DNA from: an uncultured Verrucomicrobiae bacterium
Lineage (GTDB): Bacteria; Verrucomicrobiota; Verrucomicrobiia; Limisphaerales; Palsa-1400
Assembly (NCBI GenBank): GCA_963764165.1
Contig: CAVXRD010000002.1
Coordinates: 1,696,001 to 1,760,000, forward strand
Direction of reading: 5' to 3'
Length of the DNA stretch: 64,000 nt
The notes below the pieces were generated by a model. The model had not been told where the DNA came from. It did not search any database and saw nothing but the letters and a program-made list of their open reading frames with translations. This document shows, piece by piece, positions 32,715 to 49,551 of this stretch. The position numbers and the translations under genes were made by a program. Each line of letters begins with the position of its first letter. Position 1 is the stretch's first letter.

Positions 32715-35700
32715 CTACCGCGCCGCGCGCGCGTGGCGCATGTCAAACGTGAACACCATTTCCCGATTTTTCTCCGGCGTGCGCAATTTCATCGCCCCGG
32801 GTGTGTGGCCCTGGCGGAAGAATCGGGACAATCGGCGGCTCTCGGCTTCGTAGGCGTTGACGGGAAACGTGGTGTAACTGCGCCCGCCGGGGTGCATCAC
32901 GTGGTAAGTGCAGCCTCCGATGCTGCGCTGGTTCCATTTATCGTAAATGTCGAATACCAAAGGCGTGTTCACACCGACTGTCGGGTGCAGGCAATTGGGC
33001 GGCTGCCATGCGCGATAACGGACGCCGCTGACGAACTCGCCGTTGGCCCCGGTCGGATGCAGCGGAATGGCCCAGCCTCCGACGGAGATAATGTGGCGCC
33101 CACCGGTCAATCCCTGCGCCTTGATTTGCAACCGTTCGGTCGAGGAATCCACGTAGCGCACGGTGCCGCCGGGGCCGGGTTCCTCGCCCAGGACATTCCA
33201 TGGCTCCAGCGCCTGGCGCAGCTCCAAATGAATATTGCTGACGTCGAGATCGCCGAATTGCGGGAAGCGGAATTCCATGTGCGGCCCGAACCATTCGGAG
33301 CGCATCGGGTAGCCGAACTCACGCAATTCCGCCAGCACCTCGCAAAAATCGTTCCAGACGAAATGCGGCAGCATCCAGCGGTCATGAATATCCGCCCCCC
33401 AGCGGACGAGCGATTGCGTGTAGGGCTTCTGCCAAAAACGGGAGACCAGCGCGCGCAGAAGAAGCTGCTGGGCCAGGCTCATGCGCGCGTGCGGCGGCAT
33501 TTCGAAGGAGCGCATTTCCAGCAAGCCGAGCCGACCGCTGGCGCTTTCCGGCGGATAGAGCTTGTCGATGGAAAATTCGGCGCGATGCGTGTTGCCGGTG
33601 GCGTCAATAAGAAGATTGCGGAACAGACGGTCGGTCAGCCACGGCGGAATGTATTTTCTGGCCGGCACCTGCTCAAAGGCCGCTTCCAATTCGTAAAGCG
33701 AATCATTGCGCGCCTCATCAACCCGCGGGCTTTGACTGGTCGGGCCGATGAACATGCCGCTGAACAAAAACGAGAGCGACGGATGATTCTGCCAATACGA
33801 CAAAAGCGAGCGCAGCAAATCCGGCCGGCGCAGCAATGGCGAATCCGCGGGAGTGGGTCCGCCGAGAACGATGTGGTTGCCGCCGCCCGTTCCCGCGTGA
33901 CGTCCGTCCTGCAAGAATTTCTCCGAGCCGAGGCGCGTTTGGAAGGCTTCTTCGTAAAGCGCCTCGGTGGTTTGCACCATTTCGTCCCAGGTGTTGAGCG
34001 GGTGCAGATTGACTTCAATCACGCCCGGGTCAGGCGTCACCTTGAGGACATTCAGGCGATGATCGCGCGGCGGCGTGTAGCCTTCGATGACTACTGGCGT
34101 GTCGAGTTGCTTCGCAGTTTCTTCGACGGCGGCAACGCACTCCAGATAATCCTCCAGCGCATGCACCGGCGGCATGAAAACGTGCAGGCGTCCCTCGCGC
34201 GGCTCGACGCACAGGGCCGTCCGCACCAGCCACCACGCCGATTGCCCCGGCGCGGGGGCGATGGTGGTGTCCGGCGGCGTAAAACGCGTCAACAATTGGC
34301 GGCGCGGCAGTTCTTTCTGCGGGGGGCGCGGCATTTGCGGTTGAAAATCCGGCTTCGGGCGAGTCGGAAGCTCCCCTCGTTCCTCCATCGGATCCTGCTC
34401 GTAAAGATACGGAAAATCGCCCGCCTTCGCCCACGGCAATGAATCGAGCGGCAAACGCAATCCCAACGGCGAATCGCCAGGAATGAGGAAGCAGCGTTCC
34501 GTGCGCAAAAACCACGGGCCAGTCGTCCAGCCGGATTTCTGGCCAGTCCAGCCGCGCTGCAAAGGAAGGACGTAGCCGACAACCTTATCCAATCCCTCCT
34601 CGAAAATGCGGGCCATGCGCGCCCGTTCCTCGGGATCCTTGAGATCGGATTTGAAGGGATCGACATTGGCCGGGAGGCGGCGCTCTTTCCACAGATAATA
34701 CCAAGTGTCCTCAAATGCCGGAAGGACGTGCTTGCCGCCGCAGCCAAGGCGCTGCGCCAGCGTCTGTATAAATTGCTCGGCTTCTTTTGCGCCGCGGCCA
34801 TAATTCTTTGCCTCGAGCGCGAACAATTCCTCATTCGCCCAAATCGGCTTGCCGTCTTTTCGCCAATACGCGGCAAAGGCCCAGCGCGGGAGAGGCTCGC
34901 CCGGATACCATTTCCCCTGGCCGTAATGCAGCAGCGCGCCCTTGGTGAAACGATTTTTCAGGCGGCGCATCAAATCGTCGGCCAGCTTTCGCTTGGTCGG
35001 GCCTTGCGCTGTCGTGTTCCATTCCGCGCCTTCGCGATCCGTCGTTGACACGAACGTCGGTTCGCCACCCATGGTAAGACGGCAATCGTGTTTGATTAAA
35101 TCCGCATCGACCTTGTGGCCTACCGTGACAATCTCGGCCCACTGCTCCTCGGTGTAAGGCTTCGTCACGCGCGGCGATTCGAACAGCCGCTTCACGGTCA
35201 TCTCAAATTTCAACTCACACTTGCTTTCATCAACCGCGCCGCTGATTGGCGCCGCGCTTTGCGGATCGGGAGTGGCCGCGAGGGGAATGTGACCTTCGCC
35301 AGCCATCAAGCCGGAGGTCGGATCGAGTCCGATCCAGCCCGCGCCGGGCAAATACGCTTCGCACCACGCGTGAAGATCAGTGAAATCAACTTGCGTCCCG
35401 CTGGGCCCGTCGAGCGCTTTGACATCCGGAGCCAATTGAATCAAATAGCCGCTGACAAAGCGCGATGCCAAACCGCAGTGCCGCAGCAATTGCGCCAGCA
35501 GCCATGCCGTATCACGGCACGAGCCGCTGCCTTTTTCGAGCGTTTCCGCCGGCGTCTGCACCCCCGGCTCGAGGCGGATGACGTATTTGATTTCGCGGCA
35601 AAGCTGCTGGTTGGCGGCGACTAAAAAATCAATCGTGCGTGGGCGATTTTCACCGGTGCGGCCTCCGATGATGCCGTTCATCCGATCGAGCGCGGCCTTG

Positions 35701-36080
35701 AACTTCGGCGTCAATTCGCACTTCAAATGGAACGGCTCCAATTCGTGCTTTAGCGAATCCGCATATTGAAATGGCATCCGTTCCGCTTCCGGCTCGAGGA
35801 AGAAATCGAACGGATTGAAGACCGCCATCTCCGCGACCACATCGACTTCGACTTCGAACTTGTCGGTTTTTTCCGGGAAGACGAGGCGAGCCAAATAGTT
35901 TGACTGCGGATCCTGCTGCCAGTTGATGAAATGTTTTTCGGGAAGGACGCGCAGCGAGTAGCTCAAGATCCGCGCGCGCGCATGCGGCGCGGGCCGCAGC
36001 CGCACCGTCTGCGGGCCGAGGTTCACCAGCCGGTCGTAGGTGTAGGTGGTGCGGTGGTGGATGGCAGCATGAATTGGCAT
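32715..36080 (-). CDS. Transglutaminase-like domain + DUF2126 putative amidoligase fusion
   Basis: GSCRD / DLHAWCE / LDPT triad; MGGEPTF, TPDPGVIEVN, GTGGGNH. Confidence 0.9.
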   Translation of the reverse strand: MPIHAAIHHRTTYTYDRLVNLGPQTVRLRPAPHARARILSYSLRVLPEKHFINWQQDPQSNYLARLVFPEKTDKFEVEVDVVAEMAVFNPFDFFLEPEAERMPFQYADSLKHELEPFHLKCELTPKFKAALDRMNGIIGGRTGENRPRTIDFLVAANQQLCREIKYVIRLEPGVQTPAETLEKGSGSCRDTAWLLAQLLRHCGLASRFVSGYLIQLAPDVKALDGPSGTQVDFTDLHAWCEAYLPGAGWIGLDPTSGLMAGEGHIPLAATPDPQSAAPISGAVDESKCELKFEMTVKRLFESPRVTKPYTEEQWAEIVTVGHKVDADLIKHDCRLTMGGEPTFVSTTDREGAEWNTTAQGPTKRKLADDLMRRLKNRFTKGALLHYGQGKWYPGEPLPRWAFAAYWRKDGKPIWANEELFALEAKNYGRGAKEAEQFIQTLAQRLGCGGKHVLPAFEDTWYYLWKERRLPANVDPFKSDLKDPEERARMARIFEEGLDKVVGYVLPLQRGWTGQKSGWTTGPWFLRTERCFLIPGDSPLGLRLPLDSLPWAKAGDFPYLYEQDPMEERGELPTRPKPDFQPQMPRPPQKELPRRQLLTRFTPPDTTIAPAPGQSAWWLVRTALCVEPREGRLHVFMPPVHALEDYLECVAAVEETAKQLDTPVVIEGYTPPRDHRLNVLKVTPDPGVIEVNLHPLNTWDEMVQTTEALYEEAFQTRLGSEKFLQDGRHAGTGGGNHIVLGGPTPADSPLLRRPDLLRSLLSYWQNHPSLSFLFSGMFIGPTSQSPRVDEARNDSLYELEAAFEQVPARKYIPPWLTDRLFRNLLIDATGNTHRAEFSIDKLYPPESASGRLGLLEMRSFEMPPHARMSLAQQLLLRALVSRFWQKPYTQSLVRWGADIHDRWMLPHFVWNDFCEVLAELREFGYPMRSEWFGPHMEFRFPQFGDLDVSNIHLELRQALEPWNVLGEEPGPGGTVRYVDSSTERLQIKAQGLTGGRHIISVGGWAIPLHPTGANGEFVSGVRYRAWQPPNCLHPTVGVNTPLVFDIYDKWNQRSIGGCTYHVMHPGGRSYTTFPVNAYEAESRRLSRFFRQGHTPGAMKLRTPEKNREMVFTFDMRHARAAR

Positions 36081-36089
36081 GATGAGAGG

Positions 36090-37217
36090 TTACAAAGGTA
36101 GGGACGCCTCGCCGAGGCGTCCGGTTGCGTGTGTGTTCGCCCGCAGGTTGCGCATAATTGACGCCTCACCCCGGACGCCTCGGCGAGGCGTCCCTACCTT
36201 AATTTGCTGCTGCTGTTCTTCCTGTTGAATCATGATTTCGCCCGTGATGTTCGTGAAATCCTGGAAGATGTAAGCGTTGAAAGCCGCCTCGCCAATGGCG
36301 TTGAGCTTGCTTTGAAATTGATCGAGATAGGTGTGCAGACCGAGATCGAAAATTTCCTCGATGGTGCTGAATTGCAATTCGGCTTCCAACCGGCCTGCGA
36401 GTTTTTCGGCGTCGTTGCAAAATCTCCCGCTCGGCACGCCAGATATTTGGCGCAAAGCGCCGTTCAATTCCGCCACGCAAAAACGCGCCGACCGCGGGAA
36501 ATCCTCGTTGAAAAGCAAGAATTCCGCAACGTGCCTGGGATGAACATCCGCGCCGTGAATGGATTTGTATGCGTCCCACGCGCTGCACGAGCGCAACACC
36601 GCGGACCACCCCAGCGCCTCCGCCTGGCTCACGCTTTCCGGCAATCCTCGCTCCGGCAGGCTTTGATAGCGGACGTCAAGTATGCGGGACGTTTTGTCCG
36701 CCCGCTCAAGATATTGGCCGGCCATCGAAAACCACCAGCCTTCATTTCGCAAAATGGTGGCCCGGCCCAATCCGACCAGCAGCAATGAAGCGGATTTGAT
36801 TTGCTGAAAAAATTCGCTCGGGCTTTGCCGCCAGACTTTCCGCGCCTCATTCGAGCGAACGAAAAGATAGAGGCGGTTTAATTCCTCCCAGAATTCGATG
36901 GAAATCTGGTCGCGCACCATGCGGGCATTTTCGCGCGCCTGGCAGACGGAGGAGAAAATCGAATTCGCATTCTCCGGCTGGAAGACGAGAAATTCCGTCA
37001 CGGCATGGCCGGTCGCATTCTTGTGCAGCTCAAGGAACTGCTTTTCGTCACCCGTGCTCAGCAAAACAGGCATCCAGTATTGGGTCAGGCGCTCATCGTC
37101 CAGGCTGCGCATGTCCAGGATGAGTTGGAGATTCACATCGACGATGCGCGCGATGTTTTCGGCGCGCTCGATGTAGCGCGACATCCAGTAAAGGCAGTTG
37201 GCGACGCGGCTAAGCAT
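36090..37217 (-). CDS. Alpha-E domain protein (DUF403) with a Gln-rich tail and a REP-derived C-terminal extension
   Basis: MLSRVA..YWMSRYIERAEN, ARENAR, LERADKT.R, FPRS. Confidence 0.9.
   Translation of the reverse strand: MLSRVANCLYWMSRYIERAENIARIVDVNLQLILDMRSLDDERLTQYWMPVLLSTGDEKQFLELHKNATGHAVTEFLVFQPENANSIFSSVCQARENARMVRDQISIEFWEELNRLYLFVRSNEARKVWRQSPSEFFQQIKSASLLLVGLGRATILRNEGWWFSMAGQYLERADKTSRILDVRYQSLPERGLPESVSQAEALGWSAVLRSCSAWDAYKSIHGADVHPRHVAEFLLFNEDFPRSARFCVAELNGALRQISGVPSGRFCNDAEKLAGRLEAELQFSTIEEIFDLGLHTYLDQFQSKLNAIGEAAFNAYIFQDFTNITGEIMIQQEEQQQQIKVGTPRRGVRGEASIMRNLRANTHATGRLGEASLPL
36094..36200. repeat. REP family A doublet (intact), inside the 3' end of the alpha-E ORF
   Basis: aaaggtagggacgcctcgccgaggcgtcc ... 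ggacgcctcggcgaggcgtccctacctt. Confidence 0.9.
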
Positions 37218-37219
37218 GT

Positions 37220-38659
37220 CTATTCATCTCCATACAAAACCCAGGTGTCCTTGCTCCCGCCGCCTTGCGACGAATTCACCACCAGCGAGCCTGCCCGCAG
37301 CGCCACGCGCGTCAATCCACCCGGCACCACCGTCGTTTTTTCGCCGCAAATAATGTAAGGACGCAGATCGATATGCCTCCCCTGAAAACCAGTCCCGTCC
37401 ACCATTGTCGGATGGCGTGAAAGCGAAATCATCGGTTGCGCGATGTAATTTCGCGGGTCGGCCTGAACACGCGCGCGGAAGGCCTCGATTTCCTCCGCCG
37501 TCGATTTCGGCCCCATCAACATTCCGTAGCCGCCGGATTCATTGGCGGCCTTCACCACCAGGTTGGAGAGATTTTCGAGGATGTATTTGCGATCCTCTTC
37601 TTCACTGGCGAGATAAGTCGGCACATTCGGAATGATCGGGTCCTGGCCGAGATAATATTTGATCATCCGCGGCACGAAATAATACATGACCTTGTCATCG
37701 GCGATTCCGGTGCCGATGGAATTGGCCAGCGAAACGTGGCCTGAGCGATACGCGTTGACGAGACCAGGAACGCCCAGCATGGAATCGCGGCGAAACACCG
37801 TCGGATCGAGAAAATCGTCGTCTATGCGCCGGTAAATCACATGCACCGGCTGCAAGCCTTTGGTCGTGCGCATGAACACGCGCGAATCGGTCACCAGCAG
37901 GTCGCGTCCCTCCACAATCTCGATTCCCATCTGCCGAGCGAGGTATGTGTGCTCGAAATAAGCGCTGTTGCAAGCGCCCGGTGTCAACAGCACAACCGTA
38001 GGATCCGCCACGCCCCGCGGCGCGATGTGCTGCAGCATCTTTAGCAATTCCTGCGGGTAATGATCGACCGGCCGCACGCCAATGCGCTCGAACAAGTCCG
38101 GAAAGCTTCGCTTCATCGCGCGCCGATTTTCCAGGACATAACTGACGCCGCTTGGGCAGCGTCCATTGTCCTCCAGCACCATGTAAGCGCCGTCCGACCC
38201 GCGAATCAGGTCCGTGCCGCACACATGGATGTAAATGTCCTTCGGCACATCGAACCCGACAAATTCGCGCCGGAAATGTTTTCCGGACAAAACGTAAAAC
38301 GACGGAATGACACCATCCTTCACAATCTTCTGCTCGTGATAAATGTCGTGCAGAAAAAGATTCAGCGCCGTGATGCGCTGGATCAAACCGCGTTCGAGAA
38401 ATTCCCATTCTTTGGCGGGAATCACGCGCGGGACGAGATCGAACGGAAAGATCCGCTCGGTTCCCTGGGAATCGCCATAGACATTGAACGTGATGCCCTG
38501 CCGCAAAAACGCGAGGTCGATGGAGTGGCGCTTCTCGGCGAATTCCTCAGGGCCGAGGCCCTGGAAAAGCGAAAAGAAGTGCTTGTAATGCGGGCGGATG
38601 TTGCCATCCAGATCCAGCATCTCGTCAAAAAAACTATCGTGATTGTAGCCGCGCAGCAT
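37220..38659 (-). CDS. Circularly permuted type 2 ATP-grasp protein (DUF404/407)
   Basis: [16 protein letters not shown]...[36 protein letters not shown]. Confidence 0.93.
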
Positions 38660-42936: not shown

Positions 42937-42939
42937 GTT

Positions 42940-43042
42940 AAAGGTAGGGACGCCTCGCCGAGGCGTCCGGTTGCGCGTGAATAATGCAAGGGGTCCTCGC
43001 ATAAAGAGCGCCTCACCCCGGACGCCTCGGCGAGGCGTCCCT
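42940..43042. repeat. REP family A doublet whose right arm is interrupted by the IS110 element
   Basis: Left arm aaaggtagggacgcctcgccgaggcgtcc; the right arm stops at gcgtccCT and resumes as accttta at 44480. Confidence 0.92.
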
Positions 43043-43053
43043 GCTATGAATAT

Positions 43054-43059
43054 TGTCAA
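43054..43059 (-). promoter_or_regulatory. Outward-facing -35 hexamer TTGACA (putative circle-junction promoter half)
   Basis: Perfect TTGACA 11 nt inside the IS right end; the junction -10 (catggg at 17 nt spacing) is a poor match. Confidence 0.5.
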
Positions 43060-43119
43060 GTGACTAAACGGGTTCTACGTCATTTTCTTTTTTTGTTTAA
43101 ATGTTTTGATCTTATTTCG

Positions 43120-43310
43120 GAGCGTTTCCTCTTCTGGGTTCGACGGAATGCTTCCGTCGTCCAACCTGCTATCCGCACTTGTTTTTCACAGTGCCATATG
43201 ACGTTTTCGTGTCGGAAGAGGAACGAGCGCGCCCAATCTACCTTTCGGGTTCAGTTCAACTGACCCAAGGGACGGGCGGGCGCGCGCCGTTCCAAAATCT
43301 AATTTTGGGT
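43120..43310 (-). ncRNA. Bridge RNA / seekRNA of the IS110 element (ends approximate)
   Basis: 5' hairpin 43292-43308; target loop 43227-43285 with guides CGUCCCU and AAAGGUAG; donor loop 43123-43225 with AUAGCAG and GUCAUAU. Confidence 0.85.
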
Positions 43311-43350
43311 CTTCATTTTAAATGCTGTCTTTGGTCTTCCTTTCCCCGGC

Positions 43351-44430
43351 TCAGGCCAGGTGCAGCACGGCGGCGGTGGCCCGCCCGGTTTCCATCCGCC
43401 AAATGTCGATGGCCAGCTTGCGCGCGATGGCCACGATGGCTTTCTTGCGCGCGCCCCGGTTTTGGGTTTGGCCCAGCACCTCCCGCCATCGCACCACCGG
43501 CCCGTAGCTGGGCTGGTAGCGAATGACTCGCCATGCCAGTTCAATCAGCAGCCGCCGCAATCGGGGATTGCCGTGCTTGGTGATGGAGCCCGAGATGCTG
43601 TGGCTGCCGCTGGCCTGCACTCCCGGACACAGGCCCGTCAAGCTGGCGACCTGGCGGCGATTGGCGAACCGGTTCCAGTCGAAGACTTCGCGGCGCAGCG
43701 TTTCGCTGGTCAGCAGTCCGACTCCTTTGGGCTGGGGCTTGGCCTGGCTTTGGATCTTGATGGTCACTTCTTGCAGCAGCTTGTCGGCGCCGGCTGCCAG
43801 CGCGCGCAGGATTTCCAAAATGGAGGACAGCCAGGCGGGCAGTTTGGCTTTGTGCTTCACCCATGCCCCCTCCTTCCACCATTGCCCGCTGACCCGGTGG
43901 CCATTGTAAAGCAAGAGGCTGCGTCCTTGGGCCTCATGGGTTTGCCGGTCCTTTTGCAGCTGCTCGCGCAGGCGGGTTTGGGCCCGGACTTGTTCCTGCT
44001 CGGGGGTGGGCACGGTGATGACGGCCAGGGCCTTGCGGTTGCCCTGCACATAGCGGTCCAGCCGCTGAACCATGGCCAGGGCGTCGGTCTTGTCAGTCTT
44101 TACCCCGCGGCCCAACTCATCCCAGTTCTGGGGGCGGACAACGATGTTCTTGACGCCCATTTTCAGCAGCGCTCGATGCAGGGCGTAACCGAAGGCCCCG
44201 GCTTCGTAGCAACTATGCACTTCCCCGGCCAGAGTCAGTTGCTTGGCGGCGAACTTCAGGAAGTCCTCCGGTGTCATTTTCTGGGCCGGCTGAGGCGTGG
44301 CGTCATCGATCTGGCGCACGACTCGGTAACTGTCCGCGTGCACATCCACGCCCAGTTTTATCCGGGTGTATTTGCACGGTGTTTGTGTTTTATTGTTCGC
44401 GTGGGTATTGGTAACGGTGTTCTTTTTCAT
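43351..44430 (-). CDS. IS110-family DEDD recombinase/transposase
   Basis: LGVDVH, YEAG, KTDKTDA (DEDD); GLCPGVQASG (catalytic Ser loop); KHGNPRLRRLL; AIVAIARKL. Confidence 0.95.
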   Translation of the reverse strand: MKKNTVTNTHANNKTQTPCKYTRIKLGVDVHADSYRVVRQIDDATPQPAQKMTPEDFLKFAAKQLTLAGEVHSCYEAGAFGYALHRALLKMGVKNIVVRPQNWDELGRGVKTDKTDALAMVQRLDRYVQGNRKALAVITVPTPEQEQVRAQTRLREQLQKDRQTHEAQGRSLLLYNGHRVSGQWWKEGAWVKHKAKLPAWLSSILEILRALAAGADKLLQEVTIKIQSQAKPQPKGVGLLTSETLRREVFDWNRFANRRQVASLTGLCPGVQASGSHSISGSITKHGNPRLRRLLIELAWRVIRYQPSYGPVVRWREVLGQTQNRGARKKAIVAIARKLAIDIWRMETGRATAAVLHLA

Positions 44431-44491
44431 ACCTTGGTGTAGCACCCGTTGTGCTCACCTGCCAATACCCATGCCATCTACCTTTATCGCC

Positions 44492-45082: not shown

Positions 45083-45100
45083 CCGGAATCACAAATATTA

Positions 45101-45189
45101 AACAGGAGGAAGACCGAGAGCGCAGAGAAAAATGCCCAATTCGCCAAACAATCATTTTTGGCCTCCGCGCCCTCGGTCTTTCTCCTGTT
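45101..45189. repeat. Imperfect 27-bp inverted repeat (family G)
   Basis: Arms 45101-45127 and 45163-45189 are complementary at 24/27. Confidence 0.75.
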
Positions 45190-45268
45190 CAAATTCTTAA
45201 TGGATGAACTTCGCTGCATTTATCGCATTGGCAAACGTCGCCTCGCAAGTTACAAAAAGGGGGCTTAA

Positions 45269-47827
45269 ATGAGCCAGACCGTCATCGAAACGGAGCCACC
45301 AATCTCTGCTGATTTGCTCGCGGATTATCCGCGCGGAGGAGGATTTGACGAGGCCTTTTCAACCGGCAAGGAATTGCTCCCCCACTATGCGCCGTTCATT
45401 GCGGCCGCGCAAAAACTGGGCGCGGCGGAATTGAAGCGGCGCCGCGAAACCTGCCGCCGCCTCCTGCACGAGCAAGGGATCACTTACAATATTTCCTCCG
45501 GCGCCAAGGAGCCGACGATGCAGCAGCCGTGGCAGCTTGATCCCGTTCCGCTGATCATCGCGCCGGACGAATGGCGCGCGCTGGAAGAGGCGCTGATCCA
45601 GCGGGCCACGCTTATCAATTCCGTGCTGGCCGATTGCTACGGGCCGCAGGAATTGATTCGCACCCGCCGCCTGCCGCCCGCGCTCGTTTTTGCCCAGCCG
45701 GATTTTCTGCGCCCCTGCCGCAACGTCCGCCCGCAGAATGATGCCTATCTCAATTTTTACGCGGCGGATTTGGGCCGCTCGCCTGATGGGCAATGGTGGG
45801 TCGTCTCGGACCGCACGCAAGTTCCCACCGGCGCCGGTTATGCCCTGGCGAATCGATTGGTGACCTCCCGTGCTTTGCCCGAGCCATTCCGAAGCTGTCA
45901 AGTGAATCGACTGGCGGGCTTCTTCCGCGACATGCAGATTTCGCTGGCCAGCCTCGCCCCGCGCCAATCGGATAATCCGCGCATCGTCTTCTTGACGCCC
46001 GGTCCTTACAGCGAGACGTATTGCGAGCAAAGCTATCTCGCGCGTTATCTCGGCTACATGCTCGTTGAGGGCCAGGATTTGACGGTGCGCGACGACAAGG
46101 TCTATCTGAAAACCCTGAGCGGCCTTGAGCAAGTCGATGTGATTTTTCGCCGGGTCGATGATGATTTTTGCGATCCGCTGGAATTGCGCAACGATTCCAT
46201 TCTCGGCGTGCCCGGATTGCTGGAAGCCTTGCGGGCGGGCAACGTCGCGGTGGCCAATTCGCTCGGGGCGGGCCTGCTGCAAAGTCCGGCGGTGATGGCC
46301 TTTTTGCCGGGGCTCTGCCAGCACCTGCTGGGAGAGGATTTGAAAATGCCCTCGGTGGCGACGTGGTGGTGCGGGCAGGAAGAGGCGCGAAAATACGTGC
46401 TGGAAAGCCTCGACCAGCTTCCCGTCCGTTCAGCCTTCCGGCTTGACGCTCCCGAGCGCGAGGGCCGATTGAAATTAAGCGCGGCCCAGCGCGAGGCGCT
46501 GAAGCGGCGCATCGAATTCCAGCCGCATCTTTTCGCCGCGCAAGAGGAATTGAAACTTTCGACTGCGCCGTCGTGGGTCTCGGGCGAAATTCTGCCGCGT
46601 CCCGTGTCCCTTCGCGTTTATTTGGTGGCCATCGGCGGCACTTACAAAATGATGGCCGGCGGCCTCACTCGCGTGGCGGCGGCGACGCAGTGGCACACGC
46701 TCTCGATGCATCACGGCGGCGTGAGCAAGGACACCTGGGTCTTGAGCCATCAACCCGTCGAAGCCGTCACGCTGCTTCACCCGGCCGAAGGAGCGATTGA
46801 ATTGCGGCGGGTGGGAAATAATTTGCCGTCGCGCCTGGCGGACAATTTCTTCTGGCTGGGCCGGTATGAGGAGCGGGCGGATGCGACGGCGCGTTTGCTG
46901 CGAAGCGCCTTCGCCCGGTTCGGCCCGGAAAATCTCGGCGGAGCGCAGCCGCAACTGTGGCCCATCTTGCAGGCGCTCAAATTGCCGCGCAGAACTAATG
47001 AACCCGAATCCGAAGCTGACGCGGAGGCGCCGCCACCCGTGACGGAATTGGATTTGTGGGCCTTGATTTTCGATCCCGGCATGCCCGGCAGCCTTCGCGA
47101 TACGGCGGCAAATTTGCAGCGCCTGGCCGTATTTCTGCGCGAGCGGACGTCCAACGATTTGTGGCAGGTGCTGAGCTCGCTGGCCGACCGGCTCGCCATG
47201 CCGGCGGGAACAATGGGTTCGCTGGCGGGGGATGCAGCCGGATTGCTGAGCCAGGTTCTCAGCAGCCTGGCGGCATTCCGCGGCCTGGCCCGCGAGAACA
47301 TGACACGCGCCCACGGCTGGCGTTTTCTTGACATGGGCCAGCGCATCGAGCGCGCGATTCATCTCTGCGCCTTTTTGGACCATGCTCTGGCTTCGCCCGA
47401 GGCGGACAATCCCAGCGTGCTCGAAGCGGTGCTGGAAGTGGCCGACAGTTCGATCACCTACCGCGGCCGCTACAATCTGCTGCCGAACATTGCGACGGTG
47501 TATGATTTAGTCTTGCTCGATGACACCAATCCGCGTTCGCTGTTGTTCCAATTGAACCAACTGGTCAAACATTTCGAGCGGCTGCCGGGCGAACGCGAGA
47601 GCGCGCTGCCCAGCGCGGGCAACCGCATTTTAATCGAATGTTTGACAGAAGTGCGCCTGCTGGACCCGCGCGATTTGAACAAGCTCAAGGGCGGCTGGCA
47701 GGAGAGCGCGGCCGGGCGCGTCATCCAGGATGTGCTGCGCCAGATGCCGCTGCTTTCGGATGCGATTGCGGCGAGTTATTTTGCGCACTCCGCGATTTCC
47801 CGCGCCGGCGGGAGCGACATGCGCTGA
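45269..47827 (+). CDS. Circularly permuted ATP-grasp + alpha-E fusion protein
   Basis: GITYN, LDPVP, FRRVDDDFCDPLEL, SKDTWV, then LPSRLADNFFWLGRYEERA, ENMTR..GWRF, NPRS. Confidence 0.92.
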   Translation: MSQTVIETEPPISADLLADYPRGGGFDEAFSTGKELLPHYAPFIAAAQKLGAAELKRRRETCRRLLHEQGITYNISSGAKEPTMQQPWQLDPVPLIIAPDEWRALEEALIQRATLINSVLADCYGPQELIRTRRLPPALVFAQPDFLRPCRNVRPQNDAYLNFYAADLGRSPDGQWWVVSDRTQVPTGAGYALANRLVTSRALPEPFRSCQVNRLAGFFRDMQISLASLAPRQSDNPRIVFLTPGPYSETYCEQSYLARYLGYMLVEGQDLTVRDDKVYLKTLSGLEQVDVIFRRVDDDFCDPLELRNDSILGVPGLLEALRAGNVAVANSLGAGLLQSPAVMAFLPGLCQHLLGEDLKMPSVATWWCGQEEARKYVLESLDQLPVRSAFRLDAPEREGRLKLSAAQREALKRRIEFQPHLFAAQEELKLSTAPSWVSGEILPRPVSLRVYLVAIGGTYKMMAGGLTRVAAATQWHTLSMHHGGVSKDTWVLSHQPVEAVTLLHPAEGAIELRRVGNNLPSRLADNFFWLGRYEERADATARLLRSAFARFGPENLGGAQPQLWPILQALKLPRRTNEPESEADAEAPPPVTELDLWALIFDPGMPGSLRDTAANLQRLAVFLRERTSNDLWQVLSSLADRLAMPAGTMGSLAGDAAGLLSQVLSSLAAFRGLARENMTRAHGWRFLDMGQRIERAIHLCAFLDHALASPEADNPSVLEAVLEVADSSITYRGRYNLLPNIATVYDLVLLDDTNPRSLLFQLNQLVKHFERLPGERESALPSAGNRILIECLTEVRLLDPRDLNKLKGGWQESAAGRVIQDVLRQMPLLSDAIAASYFAHSAISRAGGSDMR

Positions 47828-47833
47828 AGTGTT

Positions 47834-48706
47834 ATGACATTTGACGTCACCCATCGCACCACGTATCGCTACAGCCAGCCGGTGACGGTGTCGCAGCATG
47901 CGGCCCGCGTCGAGCCACGCGATTTTCCCGGGCAAATCCTGGAGAGTTTTTCGTTGAGCATCGATCCGCCGCCGCCCATCCGCAAAACGCGCAATGATTA
48001 CTTTGGCAACCACGTCTGTTTTTTCAGCATCCAGGAAGTCCATTCGGAATTGGAAATCGTGGCCCGCAGCCGGTTGACGGTGGCATCGGCCACCCAGCCC
48101 GCGCTGCTGCTTTCGCCGGCGTGGGAGCGCGTGGTGGGGCTGTTCACGGATCCCGTTTCGCCGGAGGTGGTCGAGCCTTATGAATTTGTATTTGACTCTC
48201 CCTTCGTACGCGCTTCGCCGGCCTTGGCGGCTTACGCGAAGGCGAGTTTTCCAGCGGGCGCGCCGCTGCTTTCCGCCGTGCTTGATTTGAATCGCCGCAT
48301 TTTCAGCGATTTCAAATACGACCAGATTGCGACCACCGTGGCAACTCCGCTGGAGGAGGTCATGGAAAAAAGGCGCGGCGTCTGCCAGGATTTCGCGCAT
48401 GTGGCGATTGCCTCGCTGCGCTCGCTGGGACTGGCGGCGCGATATGTCAGCGGCTATTTGCGCACGCGCCCGGCTGAGGGCAAACCGCAGCTCATCGGCG
48501 CCGACGCCTCGCATGCGTGGTTCTCGGTTTTCTGCCCCGATCTCGGATGGGTCGATTTCGATCCCACCAACAACGTCATGCCGGACACCGAACATCTGAC
48601 GCTCGCCTACGGGCGCGATTTCGGCGATGTCAGTCCCATCAGCGGCATCCTTACGGGAGGCGGCGCGCACGAAGTGAAAGTGGCAGTGACGGTGAGCGCA
48701 GTATGA
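47834..48706 (+). CDS. Transglutaminase family protein
   Basis: HRTTYRY, GVCQDFAH, RYVSGY, SHAW, FDPT, GRDF. Confidence 0.92.
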   Translation: MTFDVTHRTTYRYSQPVTVSQHAARVEPRDFPGQILESFSLSIDPPPPIRKTRNDYFGNHVCFFSIQEVHSELEIVARSRLTVASATQPALLLSPAWERVVGLFTDPVSPEVVEPYEFVFDSPFVRASPALAAYAKASFPAGAPLLSAVLDLNRRIFSDFKYDQIATTVATPLEEVMEKRRGVCQDFAHVAIASLRSLGLAARYVSGYLRTRPAEGKPQLIGADASHAWFSVFCPDLGWVDFDPTNNVMPDTEHLTLAYGRDFGDVSPISGILTGGGAHEVKVAVTVSAV

Positions 48707-49551
48707 ATGAAGTCCGCTGGCGGGTTCAACACCGCACCTCCTACCTCTACGCCGCCGCCGCCCGGGACAGTTTCAATGACGTCCGGCTTCGGCCGCCGAC
48801 CAACGAGCGGCAGTCCGTCGAATCCTTCGAGTTGATCGTGAAGCCGGAAGTTCCCGTCACGTTCTACCGCGATTTTTATTCCAACTGGGTGCATCATTTT
48901 GAACTTGCCGCGCCGCATGCCGAACTGACGATTGAAAGCCGCAGCGTTGTTCACGTTCATCCGCCACCGATGCTGTCGCCAGAGGCCGTTACCGCGCCGC
49001 TGACCGCGATGCCGGAGCTGATCAAAACAGTGGAATGCTTTGATTATCTTGGAGCGAGCCGGTTTGTGGAGATCGAGCCGGACATCTGGCGCATGGCTAT
49101 CGATGCGACCATGGGCGTCACCGACACATGGCAGGCGGCCCAGGCGATCATGCGCTTCGTGCATGGACATCTGGCTTATGCGCCCGAGTCAACGAATGTT
49201 CATACGCCGGTGCGGGACGTTCTGATTCAGCGAAGGGGTGTATGCCAGGATTTCGCGCATGTCATGGTGGGGCTTTGCCGCGCGATCCGAATTCCCGCGC
49301 GCTACGTCAGCGGTTATCTCGCGGTGCAGGAGGCCCGGGCGACTCACGCATGGGTGGAAATTTGGATTCCCCGCCGCGGATGGCTCGCGGTGGACCCGAC
49401 CCACAGCCGGCAGATAGACGAGACTTACATTAAAATCGCGGTGGGCCGCGATTATTCGGACGTGCCGCCAGTGGCCGGCACCTATCGGGGCTCAGTTGAT
49501 CGCAAGATGGAAATTGACGTTCAGATTGATCGTGTCAAGGCCGGTGAATGA
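48703..49551 (+). CDS. Transglutaminase family protein (second paralog)
   Basis: ATG at 48703 overlaps the upstream TGA; GVCQDFAH, THAW, VDPT, GRDY. Confidence 0.92.
   Translation: MNEVRWRVQHRTSYLYAAAARDSFNDVRLRPPTNERQSVESFELIVKPEVPVTFYRDFYSNWVHHFELAAPHAELTIESRSVVHVHPPPMLSPEAVTAPLTAMPELIKTVECFDYLGASRFVEIEPDIWRMAIDATMGVTDTWQAAQAIMRFVHGHLAYAPESTNVHTPVRDVLIQRRGVCQDFAHVMVGLCRAIRIPARYVSGYLAVQEARATHAWVEIWIPRRGWLAVDPTHSRQIDETYIKIAVGRDYSDVPPVAGTYRGSVDRKMEIDVQIDRVKAGE

Follow-up and report, generated by a model that had tools for sequence, protein, structure and literature searches.

The window, the 64-kb stretch of DNA analysed here, contains a 1,437-bp insertion of the IS110 family that splits a GTAG-type REP at its CT/AG core and occurs once in the source genome (Table 1). 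Its recombinase gene is on the minus strand; on the element's own strand the insertion falls at the AG of GTAG. Genes for a GH2 glycosidase and a GNAT protein flank the element. These are surrounded by two clusters of open reading frames (32715-38659 and 45269-49551) that resemble circularly permuted ATP-grasp, alpha-E and transglutaminase-like genes.

Table 1. Features of the element and of the REP that it interrupts (window coordinates)
Feature	Position	Strand	Remark
Intact partner REP arm: GTAG (42944-42947), then 21-nt palindrome (42948-42968)	42939..42970	+	
Palindrome of the interrupted REP arm; left target on the + strand	43018..43040	-	
CT core at one junction (AG of GTAG on the - strand)	43041..43042	+	
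Insertion sequence, 1,437 bp including one core copy (44478-44479)	43043..44479	-	Single copy in source genome
Long 3' non-coding end, 308 nt	43043..43350	-	Folds with z = -3.3
Right subterminal inverted repeat, 3 nt from core; holds TTGACA (43054-43059, - strand)	43046..43063	+	
Predicted bridge RNA core: target-binding loop, then multi-branched donor-binding loop	43127..43293 (ends approximate)	-	
Right donor guide (43166-43173) and handshake GU (43164-43165)	43164..43173	-	Guide matches at 7/8
Left donor guide	43196..43202	-	5/7 match and one G-U wobble; mismatch at first core base
Right target guide (43238-43245) and handshake AU (43236-43237)	43236..43245	-	Guide matches at 8/8
Left target guide	43268..43276	-	7/9 positions match REP, core included
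Recombinase gene, 359 aa	43351..44430	-	D29, E76, D113, D116, S274-G275
Left subterminal inverted repeat, 7 nt from end including core	44455..44472	-	
Remainder of the interrupted REP arm; right target	44480..44486	+	

Deleting 43043-44479 in silico yields a perfect 32-nt arm, the reverse complement of 42939-42970. An earlier note on this DNA had recognised the complementary arm over 15 nt; the match is real and longer than claimed. Inspection of the sequence also bore out its reading of both junctions, at which nothing beyond the 2-bp core is duplicated and the target is scarless. The precision of the insertion at the REP core, likewise asserted there, is backed by the identical ends of relatives and by their insertion sites: among 23 distinct related sites (at least 57% identity, this one included), 21 have GT before the AG core and 21 have a hairpin behind it. 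The two REP palindromes start 72 nt apart, which is among the commonest spacings (71, 67, 48, 72 and 73) of 159 close REP pairs in the source genome.

The palindrome has 18 strand-matches at 9 sites of the window, against 0.00 in shuffles. Across the 7.0-Mb source genome, 453 loci match the 21-nt palindrome with no more than three mismatches, 239 of them headed by GGTAG and 117 by GGCAG. With this heading, its stem-loop and its many copies, the repeat fits the GTAG/GYAG REPs of PMC3733652, which are described there as a GTAG or GCAG tetranucleotide before a 9-bp stem, arranged in inverted dimers and found in hosts that include Verrucomicrobia; tetranucleotide, stem and inverted-dimer pairing are alike in both. 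We looked for a Y1/RAYT gene beside the repeat, and none of the ten PF01797 matches in the source genome (97% complete) has a copy within 700 nt. A REP family does not require a RAYT gene. Three similar Y1 transposase-like reading frames stand at intervals of about 2 kb at C4:238114-242381 of the source genome. One REP dimer of the window (36102-36193) falls within the 3' end of a 375-aa reading frame (36090-37217), whose translated tail it forms. At 45098-45192 there is an inverted repeat pair of another sequence, 30 nt long and 87% complementary, and its match at C1:273909-274008 of the source genome suggests a second repeat family.

Recombinase, ends and group of the element

The recombinase reading frame is open, as the earlier note stated, and encodes 364 aa from a GTG at 44445 or 359 aa from an ATG at 44430; that the insertion is recent does not follow from an open frame. 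Three profiles score above their cut-offs: PF01548 (30.5 against 29 bits), PF02371 (65.3 against 21.3) and NF033542 (166.8 against 140). In an alignment of 11 of the 120 listed homologues, D29, E76, D113 and D116 are invariant and S274 is at least 90% conserved. The protein has the DEDD RuvC domain and the Tnp domain with catalytic serine that mark the IS110 family, and its residues 266-275 carry the GL-P----S(t)G motif of IS1111 members. A structure prediction was weak (pLDDT 67.5, pTM 0.40); a fold search with this weak model returned the IS621 and ISCro4 recombinases as best matches, with an E-value of 1.6e-8 and a TM-score of about 0.3. These two proteins of solved structure are about 20% identical to the recombinase. 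A single-sequence search of the PDB gave 0 matches, a profile search reached IS621 and ISCro4 at E of about 0.01, and no IS1111-type chain was among the sequence, profile and fold matches.

Three sources supplied the relatives: a set of 101 genomes, 30 of which had a match, a genome scan that gave 4 loci and a metagenome scan that gave 35. Where the closest genomic relatives have a named host it belongs to the Limisphaerales, and the host here is probably a verrucomicrobium as well. In a midpoint-rooted tree of 37 rows, which has no named IS110-group outgroup, lacks ISPa11 and the relative L011, and has L085 and L092 among rows trimmed short, the recombinase falls in a branch of 16 relatives (99/99). 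This branch adjoins ISRel9 (94/91) and then ISSso6 and ISEc45 (91/83). At 359 aa, and by its placement, the recombinase is outside the tight core IS1111 clade of 330-350 aa proteins formed by ISEc11, IS4321, ISKpn2 and ISShdy1 (100/100). Its nearest named recombinases, those of ISRel9, ISSso6 and ISEc45, all appear as IS1111 family members in the PMC11187229 source data. We therefore place the element in the IS1111 group broadly defined and not in the tight ISEc11/IS4321 clade.

The ends point the same way. The IS1111-type layout proposed in the earlier note is supported by the family profiles and by close relatives that have both ends in common and differ in their flanks; multi-copy elements in two genomes (G013 and G018) independently give the same boundaries. 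Non-coding DNA extends over 308 nt downstream of the gene and 49 nt upstream, which is the IS1111 layout and not the IS621-like one of the IS110 group, where the bridge RNA precedes the gene. As described in PMC11187229, IS1111 elements have 7/3 extensions, a 3' non-coding region and a reversed guide order. Here the top-strand guide comes before the bottom-strand guide relative to the gene's strand, as in IS1111; CT is read on the strand opposite the gene, and this arrangement is the reversed order of PMC11187229.

The note's subterminal repeats were confirmed at 14 of 18 matching positions, 7 nt (with the core) and 3 nt from the ends. Its IS1111 end geometry holds for these offsets and less well for the repeats themselves, which match at 9 of 12 positions; the IS1111 definition has repeats of 11-13 bp, perfect or near-perfect, and those here are more degenerate. 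Across the 29 elements with both ends, the repeats match at 4-11 of 12 positions (mean 8.5), and of 121 offset pairs 7/3 gives the best agreement (8.5/12 against an average of 3.6). The ATG/CAT triplet matches in 29 of 29, a figure partly built in by end-finding patterns that contained it. The two repeats disagree at position 11 in 28 of the 29 elements and at position 14 in 27, and these two fixed differences create TTGACA in the right end only (43054-43059, as against 44455-44472). In the computed circle junction this perfect -35 box is followed, at a spacing of 17 nt, by a -10 hexamer that is poor but has an extended TG, and 24 of 29 junctions are alike. On this arrangement a junction promoter, with TTGACA as candidate -35, is plausible.

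The G013 and G018 relatives (L005, L006 and L031-L041; 50-53% identity) are multi-copy and have AAAG|GGGTCA as their target repeat; L031 contains two copies in tandem. Reading frames just downstream of many of these insertions resemble, when read by eye, Y1/RAYT transposases. The computed junction spacing in these relatives would yield a better -10 box. Relatives of 36-37% identity (L014, L045-L049, L015, L050, L012 and L016) have AG at the left junction and CG or GG at the right, and the cores are unequal in all 6 copies of genome G007, though the right donor guide spells AG.

Predicted bridge RNA and its guides

The 3' end of the element folds better than all 100 shuffles (z -3.27). A structured non-coding end with target and donor guides is a feature of the IS110 family and is present here on sequence evidence; multi-branched donor loops have been noted for IS1111 (PMC11208160). 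In an alignment of 31 of the 35 RNAs extracted (four near-copies of L005 were omitted), four helices are paired in 99.1% of cells, compared with 28-54% in slid controls. Both sides have changed in 10 of 34 pairs; many of these double changes stem from two divergent rows, and kinship inflates the shuffle test. A search of Rfam with the RNA found nothing at family level and one chance hairpin match (E 0.62).

Guides were compared with flanks in 69 rows, which reduce to 24 distinct guide sets per side (parsed loop and flank, this element included). At the right flank the mean match is 5.04 of 7 contiguous positions, against 2.48 ± 0.25 when shuffled, and at the left flank it is 3.92 of 6, against 2.78 ± 0.17; on either side 0 of 10,000 shuffles scored as high, with kinship uncorrected. 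The contiguous match breaks after two bases in 3 of the 24 sets. Relatives at unusual sites (L083, L072, L004 and L085) have guides altered to fit them. The earlier note would have taken non-REP flanks in other copies as evidence against its reading. A few relatives, L083 and L004, do lie off REPs, yet their guides have changed to match, and since they fit these non-REP sites the two relatives support the mechanism; the note's test was too strict. The source genome contains 57 occurrences of the 13-nt site spelled by the guides, where about 0.2 are expected with uniform bases, and 44 of the 57 lie within 30 nt of a counted palindrome.

The same comparison makes it highly improbable that protein contacts read the REP hairpin or the GTAG motif and that the RNA matches are incidental. 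The GT and the hairpin at 21 of 23 related sites each (counts that have no shuffle control) are what such contacts would predict, but the guides track the flank letter by letter, L083 and L004 included, and none of the 10,000 shuffles equalled them.

The donor side leaves more room for disagreement. An account of the seekRNA type accepts the same element and target guides and holds that a short target-loop RNA suffices, the protein reading the ends through the subterminal repeats and not through a donor loop. An 82-nt target-only seekRNA supported transposition of ISEc11 (PMC11187229), the left donor guide of our element and its relatives is imperfect in 30 of 30 rows, and the subterminal repeats are positionally conserved. 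We nevertheless judge this account unlikely, because the right donor guide, invariant in the 31 aligned RNAs, is altered together with the end in L011 and L095, the left donor guide tracks changed left ends of relatives, and both handshake dinucleotides, AU and GU, are those of IS621 (PMC13626964). The donor has AT at positions 6-7, as does wild-type IS621 with its AU/GU handshake (PMC13626964). Taken with the donor guides, the handshake bases suggest that the present IS1111 branch relies on the chemistry of IS621, a point relevant to the role, if any, of the donor loop in IS1111 elements.

Very probably, then, the element reached the CT core of the REP by bridge-RNA-guided recombination, the four guides of its predicted 3'-end RNA matching the REP and the joined ends. 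The case is built from sequence, namely from the element's ends, the REP restored by its removal, the catalytic residues, the matches of the guides and their covariation with flanks and ends in relatives. By analogy with IS621 and ISEc11, the element would be excised as a circle joined at CT, and a promoter at the junction would transcribe gene and RNA. A tetramer of the recombinase would bring the target loop into pairing with the REP, and the donor loop into pairing with the junction of the circle, and would cut and rejoin through Ser274. Counted as for IS621, the handshake bases would form one Watson-Crick pair before strand exchange and three after it, so that insertion may be favoured. 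Counting against this explanation are the core mismatch in the left donor guide, the poor -10 hexamer of the computed junction, and the single copy of the element despite 57 full-match target sites in the source genome.

Copy number and the mismatch at the core

The earlier note had proposed looking for other copies; blastn and tblastn found none in the source genome. PF02371 has four matches there, three of which are different elements. Two identical IS621-like copies with a 5' bridge RNA lie at C1:326799-328001 and C2:1263023-1264225. Both have entered copies of this REP at the identical CT bond, with matching guides and with the gene on the CT strand, opposite to the element here; the REP of one copy has lost its outer arm. 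Two distant lineages are therefore aimed at one bond. Another IS110-family gene of the source genome (L105, C1:192300-195000) has a long branch and is unrelated to both REP-targeting elements, and blastn of L105 against plasmids returned no named IS110-group reference.

Four relatives within the genus share parts of the region, and an empty allele with both flanks was found in none of them. Two public DNA runs of one study covered 7 of 30 bins of the locus, with no joint found. A contig from the public runs that continues through the REP core was considered as an empty allele and rejected, its upstream letters being different, which identifies it as another REP copy. A 217-nt contig 99% alike to the element's left end is present in two public runs of one study.

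It is possible to accept the architecture as genuine and to regard this copy as an old, inactive resident, disabled by the core mismatch in its left donor guide. The element is single-copy, and its mismatch is at core position 8, where only 1 of 30 close rows has a true mismatch. Several observations nonetheless make this reading quite improbable: the reading frame is open with all catalytic residues, a perfect guide at the core is found in no close relative, L011 (two genomic copies) and L095 are likewise mismatched at position 8, and the contig nearly identical to the left end recurs in the two public runs.

The mismatch itself follows a pattern. In 30 rows, which include this element and two near-duplicate pairs, the left donor guide is never fully matched at positions 7-9. 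It has A at position 9 in 21 rows, and the 9 rows that have U there all deviate at 7 or 8, in two cases through a wobble. For 28 distinct RNAs the mismatch table is 20/1/0/7 (Fisher p 7e-6, the rows not being independent). A core mismatch is also present in four distant relatives and in the IS621-like element of the source genome. When the mismatch labels are placed on the tree there are 5 changes, of which well-supported branches force only 1, so that repeated origin is not proven.

A core mismatch is not wholly new. The left donor guide of IS621 likewise stops short of full core pairing: as given in PMC11208158, it comprises A123-C130, and A131 is unpaired to DNA and pairs with U159. A thin check of the literature from 2025 on found no description of a mismatch that moves. 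In folding calculations over 64 triplets, the perfect guide has the second-highest tendency to zip onto the first bases of the right donor guide. Pairing by the natural triplet is weaker than by the perfect guide in 26 of 29 RNAs, but the commonest natural triplet still ranks fifth (2.35 against 2.93). Mis-pairing of a perfect left donor guide with the core or handshake of the target loop was also considered and was rejected, its probability being 0.00 in all 28 RNAs.

The moving mismatch is a lead. A tentative reading, to which we give appreciable weight while thinking it may well be wrong, is that the bridge RNAs of this lineage are selected never to match the donor fully at the core. The mismatch would shift to position 7 or 8 when position 9 matches (five spellings) and would stop the donor loop from zipping shut or damp excision, a built-in control beside the handshake; the IS1111-type and IS621-type elements at one bond would form a natural pair for testing the interchange of RNA and protein. 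If functional, the moving mismatch would be a design rule for bridge-RNA engineering.

Relation to known elements

The element is a clean new example of an RNA-guided kind already known; the system itself is not new in kind. Work of 2024-2026 had described and tested IS110/IS1111 elements that target REPs, together with their guide RNAs, and the present finding was therefore to be expected. Its value is as material: an intact, divergent recombinase, a fully readable RNA and naturally retargeted relatives.

ISRel9 has the same end pattern, with AG core, 5 nt and ATG at the left and TTGAC...CAT, 3 nt and AG at the right. ISRel9, ISSso6 and ISEc45 are 27-30% identical to the recombinase and, like it, have proteins longer than 350 aa. 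The element differs from ISRel9 in its target and in having its own branch of relatives (99/99), joined to ISRel9 at 94/91 only. ISPa11, ISEc11 and IS4321 are alike in their 3' non-coding guides, 7/3 extensions, reversed guide order and GL-P----SG motif, and ISPa11 is also REP-targeting, according to PMC11187229. ISEc11, IS4321, ISKpn2 and ISShdy1, whose clade is separate (100/100), are 23-33% identical to the recombinase in local alignments, and the subterminal repeats here (9/12) are degenerate compared with those of core IS1111 elements.

IS621 of E. coli, as described in PMC11208160, PMC11208158 and PMC13626964, resembles the element in its CT core, REP target, four guides and AU/GU handshake. 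Its RNA lies upstream of the gene and has a simple donor loop, whereas here the RNA is downstream and its predicted donor loop multi-branched; and with the CT strand antisense to the gene, gene and RNA face the other way from those of IS621 relative to the recombination site.
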